Below are positions 1-41,900 of a stretch of DNA of 64,000 nt, piece by piece. The notes beneath the pieces were generated by a model, which saw only the letters and a program-made list of their open reading frames with translations, was not told the origin of the DNA and did not search any database. This DNA comes from Octopus vulgaris (taxonomy: Eukaryota). The DNA is taken from NCBI GenBank assembly GCA_951406725.2, contig OX597816.1, positions 143,096,001 through 143,160,000 of the forward strand, read 5' to 3'. The position numbers and the translations under genes were made by a program. Position 1 is the first letter of the stretch, and each line of letters starts with the position of its first letter.

Positions 1-719
1 ATGAAAGATTATTAAACAAAGTAAAAATTATTTTTATTAATCAAAATTTCTCTATCTTCACAATTTATTTTAATATATGCAGGACAAGCAATAGGATATA
101 TCATAAACAAAATTAATTATGGGAAAAAAAATCCAGAAGAAATATATTCATACACAGAATTACAAAGCCACTCTATTTAAGTGATAGTAGCATGAAATAT
201 GTTCCAATACCACATATAAAAAGAAAATGTTTGCTTCTGTTTTCAATCATTAATTATATATTGGTCAAATATTTCTTCTGAATATGTAATAAAATAGGAC
301 AAGATGTATACTAAATGCTACTAGTTTTTTTTTTTTTTTTTTATGGAGTGGGTAGGAATCCAGAATAATTTTCTGCTACATACATACAGTTAGGAGGTTT
401 TGTACATGTAATAAATAATTTACAGATAGGACCTTACCAGATGAAATCTTGATCCTGTTTCAGCTTATGGTTGAAATGGCTTAAGAAAAGATATCATCAC
501 AATTTATAATTTTCTTGCCCCCAAAATTTTGATCTTCCTGTTCAGCTAAGAAACAGGAATATTTTAATATTATATATATTTCAGTTTCAGCTTTGCTCTT
601 GCTGAAATTTCTCCATTCCTACCATAAGCACTACCATTATAAAGTCAACACATTTTCATTTCTGATATAACATAAATAAATTCTTGATCTATTTGTCTTT
701 ATTATTACTTATTTTTATT

Positions 720-23754: not shown

Positions 23755-24030
23755 TTTATTTTATAAAATAGGTCTAGAGAAAAGGGCAAAGCCCCTTCAC
23801 AGCCAACTAAGACTGGAAAAACTGATGCTGTTAACATTCCGCTTAAACTTTTGAAAAGTAGGTGAAAACATGTGCAGGGCAGAAATTTCAGGGAGTCAAT
23901 GCTCTGGTGAGGAAGAACTGGATGTAGCGATCAGTACAAGGACTAAGGAGTTAAACAAAACATGAGTGATGAAAGGAGGAGATACAAGTGAGTAGCGAGA
24001 CTTGAGTGGCAGTGACAGAAATATGCATGT
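23755..24030 (-). mobile_element. Old L2/CR1-group LINE 3' end remnant
   Basis: Minus-strand remnant TDRYIQFFLTRALT resembles the SFFPRTxxxWNxLP C-terminal motif and ends in an A-rich tail. Confidence 0.4.
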
Positions 24031-38902: not shown

Positions 38903-41900
38903 TCATCATCATCATCATCAACATTTAACATCCACTTTCCATGGTGGCATGGGTTGGACAGTTTGACTGTAAACTGGTAAGCCAGGGGGCTGCACCAGGT
39001 TCCGATTTCATTTGGCAAGGTTTCTACAGCTGGATACCCTTCCTAAAACCATTCACTCTGAGAGTGTAGTGGGTGTTTTTTATATGTTACTGGCACATAT
39101 GCCAATGACTTGAAACCAGTATTGGCCACAACTACAATCTCAGTTGGCTTGACAGGTCTACTACAAGCACAGTATATTGCCAAAGGTCTTGGTCACCTGT
39201 CTCTGCCTCCATGACGCCCAACACTCAAATAATGCTTTTTATGTGCCACTGGCATGGGTGCAAGTCAGATGGCATTGACATCAGCCACAACTATAATTTC
39301 ACTCAGTTTGACAGGTCTTCACAAGCACAGCATATCACCCAACACTGAAGGGTGTTTTCAACAAGCCAGTTACACGACACTGGCATCAGTCACAACTATG
39401 ATCTCACTTGGCTTGATGAGGCCCAATGCTCGGATGGTACTTTTTACGTGTCACTAGCACAGGTGCAAGTCACAGTGCACTGGCATTGAACACAACTACA
39501 ATTTCACTCGGCTCAACAAGTCTTCACAAGCAAAGCATATCGCCCAATGACTGAAGGATGTTTTTAACAGGCCAGTTACGCAACACTGGCATTGGCCATG
39601 ACTACGATCTTACTTGGCTTGATGGGTCTTCTCAAGCATGGCATATCTCCAAAGGTCTCAGTCGCTTGTCATTGCCTCTATGAAACCTAACATTTCAAAA
39701 TCATGCTTCACCACTTCGTCCCATGTCTTCCTGGGTCTACCTCTTCCATAGGTTCCCTCCACTGTTAGAATTCAACACTTCTTCACACAGCTGTCCTCAT
39801 CCATATGCATCACATGACCATACCACTGCAGTTGACTCTCTTGCAAGTCCAACTTTTCTCTCAGGACACTTACATTCTGTCGTGCAAGCACACTGACATT
39901 ACACATCCAACAGAGCATACTAGCTTCATTTCTTACAAGCCTACACATATCTTCAGAAGTCATAGCCCATGTTTCACTGCCATGTAGCATGGCTGTTCAC
40001 ACACAGGCATCATACAGTCTGCCTTTCATTTTGAGCAAGAGGCCCTTCGTTACCAACAGAGGTAGGAGCTCTCTGAATTTTGCCCAGCCTATTCTTATTC
40101 TAAAAGCTATGCTCTCAGAGCATTCACCAAGGTAACAGAAGCTATCGACTACATCTAGTTTTTCCTACTGGTATGTGAATGAATCTATTTTCTGTACATC
40201 TTCAATGTTTACTGCCACTGCGCACCATCCACACACAAAAACTATCACCTATGCTAACCTTCCTCTGATATCGTTGCACCTCTTATGTGTCCATAGCTTA
40301 CACTGGGTATATCTTATGGAGTTTCTAACTATGCCTTTTCTACAGATTGAGCAGGGCCATCACCTGAAGGGATTTGTGATTTATCTACCTCCCTACTTTA
40401 TTTCATTAAGATTTGCCATAAAGGCAACCGGGCGGGGCCCCGGGACGATGGGATCCTGGGGCCGCAATGTGCATTTGAGGTGTCGATGTTCACTGAGTCC
40501 CGTAATTCGCATCAGTTCACGTGGATAGCCATGCTCTTCATCGACGGACAAGCCGAGTGATCCCCCATCCAATCTATACTTACCTCCCTACTTACTAAGA
40601 CTTTGGTTTTTACTAGGTTAACTCTAAGGCCCTTTGATTTTAGACCTTGCTTCCATACCTGAAACTTCTCTAGTTCTGGTAGTGATTCAGCTATAAGAGC
40701 AAGTTCATCAGCATAGAAGAGATTATAGCCTACTCCACCAGATATTTTAAGCATCTCAGTGGTGATTCCTGATGGGCCAGGGGCTTTTCCTGTCTTCATA
40801 TCCTTAATTGCTTTATCTACCAAGGTACTGTCAATTTGAACAGCTGGTCCTTCAGTTGGGCCAACATTTGGCAGATTCTCTTTCTCTCATTCATTCTCTT
40901 CAATCAGCAACCTTTCATAGTGGTGTCTCTAAGCCTCTTTCTTTGCAGCATCATTAAATGCAAGAGAGACATCATCTATGCAGACACATTTCTCTCCTAT
41001 GACATTGTGATTTTCTCTCACACACTGTCTTGCAATTTGAAACATATCAAGTCTCTAGTCCTCACAATGCAGAACATTAGCAAATATCTTCTTTTCTGCT
41101 TCTTCTCTGGCTAAGTAAACCTGTCTCCTAGCTTCCCTTCTGGCTATCTAATACAGTTTCCTGCTACCACCACATTTCCAGTCCTTCCAGACTTGTTTCT
41201 TTTCCCTAATGGCCCTGTCAACTACATTGTTCCACCACCATGTCACTTTAGGTCGAGAGGGGACTTTGCACCAGTCACAGCTCTGGTCAGTAGCCCTCAG
41301 CAGGTTGTCCCATAGGAACCTCCAGTTGACCTCCATGTTATACAATGCAATATCCTCCTCTTTTTTGTCAAAAGCTTCAAGAAATATGTCTCTGAATCTC
41401 TGTCCATTCAGAGAATCCTTAGGCTTCCAGACCTTCCTTTTCTTGGCAGGCATTTAGCCCTGATCCTGAAGTCACTAACAACTAACCTATGTTGTGGGGT
41501 GCAATCTTCACCTGGGAAAGTTTTGGCATTTATAAGCAGCAGTCTTTCTCACTTCCTGATGAGAATGTAGTCAATCTGACCAGAGCATGCACTGGACTGG
41601 TAGGTGAATAGTTAACTGGCAAGTTTCCTGAAGTTAGTATTACAAATCATAAGATCTCTGGCATCACAGAACTCCAGCAGCCTGGTTCCCTCCTCATTGC
41701 AGGAACCAAATCTGTTGCCACCATGCACACCATGGAAGATCCCTGAATGTTGTCCAACATGCCTAGCGAAGTCACCAGCCACAAAGATAAGGTACCTGTC
41801 ATTTGTCAACAAGGTAGTCTGCAAGAGGGTGTAATAAAATCAGTCTTTCTGTTCATCAGCCAGCCCTGGCTGAGGAGCATAGGCCAAGATAATGGTTGCT

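Follow-up and report, generated by a model that had tools for sequence, protein, structure and literature searches.

A very probable one-off chimera of 5.8S rRNA and a retroposon 3' end inside an old LINE of Octopus vulgaris

In mammals, U6, 5S, tRNA, 28S, 7SL, Y and 7SK RNAs all have known chimeric retrocopies, according to the available text of PMC11838501. Retroposed structural RNAs of another kind were surveyed in human with 5.8S in the search library, and the part of PMC5322556 available reports tailless nucleolar RNA copies only for 18S, 28S and snoRNAs. The available portion of PMC4494074 supplies an argument for separating independent chimeras from a SINE: abundant unfused copies with the same 3' end, together with unique junctions, indicate chimeras that arose independently. 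In the largely open-access literature searched, no report of a 5.8S chimera was found. At the locus described here, 5.8S rRNA is fused with a retroposon 3' end.

The window, a 64,000-nucleotide stretch of Octopus vulgaris DNA, contains an insert of 182 bp (40399-40580, minus strand) with an exact 13-bp repeat on both sides. This repeat, TACCTCCCTACTT, lies at 40386-40398 and 40581-40593, has no third occurrence in the window and is not extendable. The features of the locus are as follows:

40581..40593, minus strand: 5' target-site duplication (TSD), 13 bp; the minus-strand GT just before it gives GT^AAGTAG, the target motif of the donor family
40572..40580, minus strand: nine extra bases in the gap between TSD and rRNA, without match to rDNA or donor
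40427..40571, minus strand: 5.8S rRNA retrocopy, Rfam positions 6-150, from alignment to the genome's own rDNA array
40399..40426, minus strand: 3'-terminal 28 nt of a non-autonomous, ORF1-only element of ~2 kb, beginning at the base of a 4-bp hairpin
40386..40398, minus strand: 3' target-site duplication, 13 bp, exact repeat
39600..41850 (approximate bounds), minus strand: degenerate host LINE interrupted by the insert, putatively RTE-like

On the minus strand, Rfam RF00002 has a match at 40418-40576 with 71.2 bits (gathering threshold 42; E 3.4e-17). Alignment to the genome's rDNA array, which lies on C20 of the 2.8-Gb genome with a period of ~18.4 kb, narrows the true 5.8S homology to 40571-40427, or 145 nt at 92% identity. 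The focal 5.8S differs from the array at 12 positions, and eight of these differences are CpG-type. Neither ITS1 nor ITS2 of the array is present in the insert. The tail measures 28 nt; counting its first two bases as CpG-decayed rRNA would shorten it to 26 nt. ITS2 as the source of the tail is ruled out, the tail being unlike the ITS2 downstream of 5.8S in the array. The nine extra bases at 40572..40580 are likely untemplated or the product of 5'-junction repair. The sequence-only reading had given the same insert coordinates and exact 13-bp duplication, about 145 nt of 5.8S rRNA with an RF00002 search proposed for its boundaries, a non-rRNA tail of about 26 nt and CpG-type transitions; each of these held, and both transitions that it named are among the eight.

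Private non-CpG changes of the focal copy number three in ~107 sites (2.8%). Together with the exact TSD and the exact tail, this suggests that the insertion is fairly young. On the scale given in the available text of PMC13282606, where 0.065 corresponds to 18 My, a rough inference would place it at ~8 My. The copy is likely inert, as it has no internal promoter and shows CpG decay.

The host LINE, which we take to be RTE-like from its motifs, gave no Pfam domain in the three short fragments searched. Its frame reads ...KTKVLVSREV on one side of the insert and SREVDKSQIPSG on the other, and the shared residues SREV are encoded by the TSD. Removal of the insert and one TSD copy restores this frame, as the earlier reading had claimed. 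Two paralogous host copies (L102, L047) contain a single equivalent of the 13-mer and no insert, and run through this position uninterrupted. Contigs from four runs of four organisms are fragmented and dominated by paralogs, and among the pieces listed none bridges a junction and none is an orthologous empty site. At ~40700-40740 on the minus strand, most of the reverse transcriptase (RT) core of the host is apparently missing, an early RT motif leading directly to a YADD-like motif.

The tail corresponds exactly to the 3' end of an ORF1-only element of ~2 kb. Searched genome-wide at up to two mismatches, a 25-nt tail pattern gave 143 matches, as compared to 0 for the reversed control, which bears out the proposal that the tail is a retroposon 3' end. 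Exact tail places listed number 57, the focal one among them. In the 29 others that were examined, the tail is the 3' end of a repeat, with homology up to 1.5 kb upstream in the flank covered; AAGTAG directly follows it in 20, and in none is it fused to 5.8S. After donor tails, AAGTAG is a position inside an abundant SINE (S2), presumably tRNA-type by similarity; ARAGORN found no tRNA gene in the 11 loci tested. Eight longer copies show the donor to be a 2.0-2.3-kb element having an ORF1-like zinc-knuckle frame (a weak zf-CCHC Pfam match, E 0.006) and no RT frame. The start of the focal tail coincides with the base of a 4-bp hairpin, and tails of the autonomous LINE also form a 4-bp hairpin, with a varying loop.

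A resemblance of the tail to the old LINE end at 23757-23789 had been pointed out earlier. This is chance: its local score of 7 is attained by 38% of 3000 random 45-mers from the window. A tblastn search with ORF2 of the partner LINE also gave no match inside the window. The true donor is an ORF1-only element elsewhere in the genome, tied to a site-specific L1-group LINE.

Other members of the donor family show further arrangements. Loci L061-L068 and L150:4831-7025 form an ORF1-only, ~2-kb non-autonomous family resembling HAL1 (half-L1) elements, with a target common to it and the LINE. At single sites in L150, L153 and L157, this family is arranged in tandem, its neighbour being either the LINE or a further copy of the family. 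Inserts consisting of the tail alone, ~29-38 nt long and flanked by 14-17-bp TSDs, are present at L035 and at L158/L159, and the latter two look like duplicates of one event. At L146 (~250-330, minus strand), ~40 nt run directly into a 39-nt stretch belonging to this tail family, with no 5' TSD seen. We take the ~40-nt piece to resemble part of tRNA-Gly; it has no Rfam tRNA match and is negative in ARAGORN.

The autonomous partner is represented at L150, where a complete LINE with Pfam endonuclease (PF03372) and RVT_1 (PF00078) domains lies immediately upstream of the ORF1-only element at the same target. Five 5.45-kb copies contain ORF1 and an endonuclease-RT frame and have 9-16-bp TSDs. All five of these full-length copies occupy one SINE position, and at L190 ORF2 is open over 1140 codons. 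Across 25 LINE loci, the tail lies 2-7 edits from the focal 28-mer in 24 and has no match in one; none among the 25 is identical to the focal tail, and the same target follows most of them. Among PDB structures, human L1 ORF2p is the best match (E 3e-62), zf-RVT is present in close homologs, the nearest named homolog is from Argonauta, and no Tx1-named protein occurs among the homolog matches. The feature set found is that of the L1 group: ORF1; an ORF2 combining APE endonuclease and RT; and a sequence-specific target in a multicopy element. Judged by the description in PMC4494074, these domains and this target specificity point to a site-specific L1-group LINE, probably of the Tx1 clade, as the likely mobiliser.

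The focal site has GT followed by AAGTAG, as in the SINE target. The 8-mer GTAAGTAG occurs once in 128 kb (both strands of the window). GT-AAGTAG at the focal site is thus a link between the insertion and this LINE group that does not depend on the tail. Loci L190-L194 (e.g. G000:C10:39537400-39545000) represent a young 5.45-kb L1-group LINE family at one position of an abundant SINE. Several LINE subfamilies have the target in common with a slightly different preference, AAGTAG or AAGAAG. The 3' region of another SINE, S1 (L011 tail), resembles the LINE 3' end (L150:4768-4830), and S1 targets are similarly A/G-rich; these similarities suggest that S1 may be mobilised by the same LINE group.

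Genome-wide, the focal rRNA/tail junction has one match at up to three mismatches, which is the focal locus. Similarity to 5.8S was found at 103 places, a lower bound since 40 of 131 candidates were scored and the patterns allowed three mismatches. Of these places, 39 are ITS-bearing (rDNA units or fragments) and 64 are ITS-free. A partner was recognised by pattern in 43 of the ITS-free copies: SINE S1 in 27; S2, S3 and S4 in three each; the short tail module tailR in four; an S1-type tail in two; and the focal tail in one. BLAST or inspection supplied a partner for eight more, so that 51 of the 64 run into SINE heads or retroposon tails. The other 13 have no identified partner, and two of them duplicate each other.

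An anchored test for TSDs was tried on 33 S1-type or focal fusions, and the tail end was located in 26. An enclosing TSD is present in 13 of these 26, as compared to 6/650 mismatched pairs; the remaining 13 have none at the first tail end, and some of them continue into another SINE copy. This test replaced an unanchored scan (15/64 as compared to 5/192 in the control). Decay of the 5.8S copies from the rDNA sequence reaches 0.18 at CpG and 0.058 elsewhere. The genome holds ~50 similar but separate 5.8S fusions.

Fusion of small RNAs to retroposons is general in this genome and not special to 5.8S, as U6 and 5S join the same partners. Of 30 U6 loci examined (48 scored; five form a tandem array), 17 run into the partners seen with 5.8S, and 10 carry tailR. 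For 5S, the family search is dominated by the gene array; when dispersed places are examined separately, nine of the 12 non-array places are fused to the same partners (two overlapping loci counted once). In L197-L226 and L229-L260, U6 and 5S are fused to SINE heads or to a ~50-nt tail module with a constant start point. The 5S fusions retain a T-rich trailer like that of 5S genes.

The focal insert is very likely a single chimeric retrocopy of 5.8S rRNA and the 28-nt retroposon 3' end. The two were likely joined in one target-primed reverse transcription, in which the enzyme of a site-specific L1-group LINE would have jumped between templates. Target-primed insertion had been proposed earlier and is supported by the enclosing 13-bp TSD at the donor family's target motif. 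If the retrocopy formed by such a jump, the reaction would involve: an off-target endonuclease cut at GT^AAGTAG in the old LINE; initiation of RT on the donor 3' end and synthesis as far as the hairpin base, where a ~28-nt RNA would have its 5' end; continuation on a 5.8S RNA lacking ~7 nt at its 3' end, with a stop ~5 nt before the 5' end; and second-strand synthesis, which would generate the 13-bp TSD.

The joining step alone admits a second route, in which an RtcB-type activity, as for U6/L1, would first have ligated 5.8S and a short donor RNA fragment, the chimera then being retrotransposed. The focal junction alone cannot separate the two, as it lacks a U-rich linker and its microhomology does not exceed 1-2 nt. 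Ligation would suit a focal partner that is a 5'-truncated fragment and could bear a 5'-OH, as well as the recurrence of short tail modules at fixed start points (tailR in 5.8S and U6 loci); it is shown for U6/L1 in the available text of PMC6789731. However, most 5.8S, U6 and 5S partners are SINEs from their own 5' end, presumably with a Pol III triphosphate, and the same text states that RtcB requires a 2',3'-cyclic phosphate and that a 5' triphosphate strongly lowered ligation. Because most partners begin at the SINE 5' end and the triphosphate blocks RtcB, template jumping is favoured over prior RNA ligation, by about two to one; ligation is possible, and the less probable route.

The remaining explanations concern the insert as a whole. 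Amplification of a 5.8S-headed SINE family from a master copy would account for clustered starts (Rfam 5-9 in 33/64 ITS-free copies) and ends (153-157 in 29/64), for T127C in 39 of 49 covering copies and for the one SINE partner, S1, common to 27 copies. Common ends, however, are expected from one RNA substrate, and T127C is also found in 9/27 ITS-bearing rDNA fragments, which marks it as an older rDNA state. Other non-CpG variants common to any pair of copies number at most three, and no diagnostic mutations from a master copy are shared among the 5.8S copies. The focal junction is unique, and every S1 fusion listed has a different linker. A family is thus very improbable. The sequence-only reading had left a SINE family and a one-off chimera side by side; the unique junction and the differing partners speak for the latter. 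By the argument of PMC4494074, in the text available, the abundant unfused copies and unique junction make the focal element an independent chimera and not a SINE, and we hold with high confidence that it is one-off. Separate insertion of a 5.8S retrocopy without a tail and of a tail alone, side by side by chance, might be considered, as tail-only inserts of the donor family are known (L035, L158/L159), but one TSD surrounds both parts, no second duplication is seen, and the same enclosure recurs in other fusions; this too is highly doubtful. Least credible of all is a DNA-level rDNA fragment or an assembly artefact. The 39 ITS-bearing places among 103 and the lack of a junction-spanning contig among the pieces listed would allow it, but the insert has no ITS1 or ITS2, an exact TSD, the donor target motif and CpG decay, and the paralogous host sites are intact.

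Beyond the focal chimera, the linkers of the other fusions bear on the state of the captured RNA. The bases before the S1 head motif have a median of 4 nt in ten solo S1 copies with TSD, drawn from 29 full-length copies, as compared to 12 nt in 29 fusions. Linker composition was compared in the 51 partnered fusions minus six ending at 158-161, leaving 27 that end at 150-157 and 18 that are truncated. In the 27, T occupies 80/135 of the first five linker positions (59%; background 0.283, p 7e-14) and still 59/108 when the first position is dropped. In the 18 truncated copies, several of which have A-rich linkers, the count is 24/90 (27%; Fisher p 1.6e-6). In this comparison, alignment ends are fuzzy by ~2 nt, and linkers that are short take in the A-rich leader of the SINE itself. 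Untemplated addition by RT should not depend on the 5.8S end point, making RNA tailing the better reading. The T-rich linkers at the mature 5.8S 3' end therefore suggest a record of uridylated RNA. The available text of PMC7472701 describes uridylation of 5.8S by 1-6 U in the C. elegans germline. At several loci (L106, L114, L131, L076, L086), the junctions contain short repeats, either of the 5.8S end or of the target, as if priming had aborted and restarted.

A wider proposal is that in octopods, LINE enzymes jump as a matter of routine onto structural RNAs with U tails, so that the genome would preserve germline surveillance of 5.8S rRNA as a fossil record; we regard this as an even bet. 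If true, LINEs would take up 5.8S in the form of a uridylated intermediate of its decay, much as U6 and 5S would be captured via their natural U ends, and such fusions would be raw material for RNA-headed SINEs.

The single locus is an inert curiosity, and the set of fusions matters more. The RNAs captured by LINEs come to include a Pol I product, 5.8S, with ~50 such events in one genome. These events supply a natural junction series for weighing template jumping against RNA ligation outside mammals, and they suggest that genomic junctions may record RNA 3' tailing. The set also serves as a negative control for the origins of SINE heads, in that a head lacking a promoter was tried many times and founded no family. 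As a SINE-targeting LINE with intact ORF2 is at hand, the mechanism is testable in vitro.

Compared to HAL1, the tail donor has the same ~2-kb size, ORF1-like frame only and L1-group partner; it differs in being site-specific, without a poly(A) tail and non-mammalian. Tailless retropseudogenes, as described in the available text of PMC5322556, are likewise retroposed structural RNAs with a TSD but lack a tail. The 28S rRNA-derived SINE (PMC4994717) also places a Pol I rRNA in a retroposed element; that is a family, whereas the focal 5.8S copy is unamplified. Crocodilian SINEU and Tx1-Mar, in the text available of PMC4494074, provide another promoter-less RNA head with a Tx1-type mobiliser inferred via a target inside another transposon, but SINEU comprises amplified families with common junctions, in contrast to the unique focal junction.

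Closest are the mammalian small-RNA/LINE chimeras (available text of PMC11838501 and PMC6789731), which likewise combine a sense small RNA with a retroposon 3' part within one TSD at a LINE target motif, every event being independent. The focal insert fits this description, with no precursor flank, a sense fusion to a mostly unfused 3' end, and one TSD at the target. It differs in that: the RNA is 5.8S, a term with 0 occurrences in the available text of those two papers; the mobiliser is probably a site-specific, non-poly(A) L1-group LINE; and the partners in this genome are mostly full-length SINEs or short tails and not truncated L1. Small-RNA/LINE chimeric retrocopies are thus a known class, and 5.8S as the captured RNA is, with respect to the literature searched, what this locus adds.
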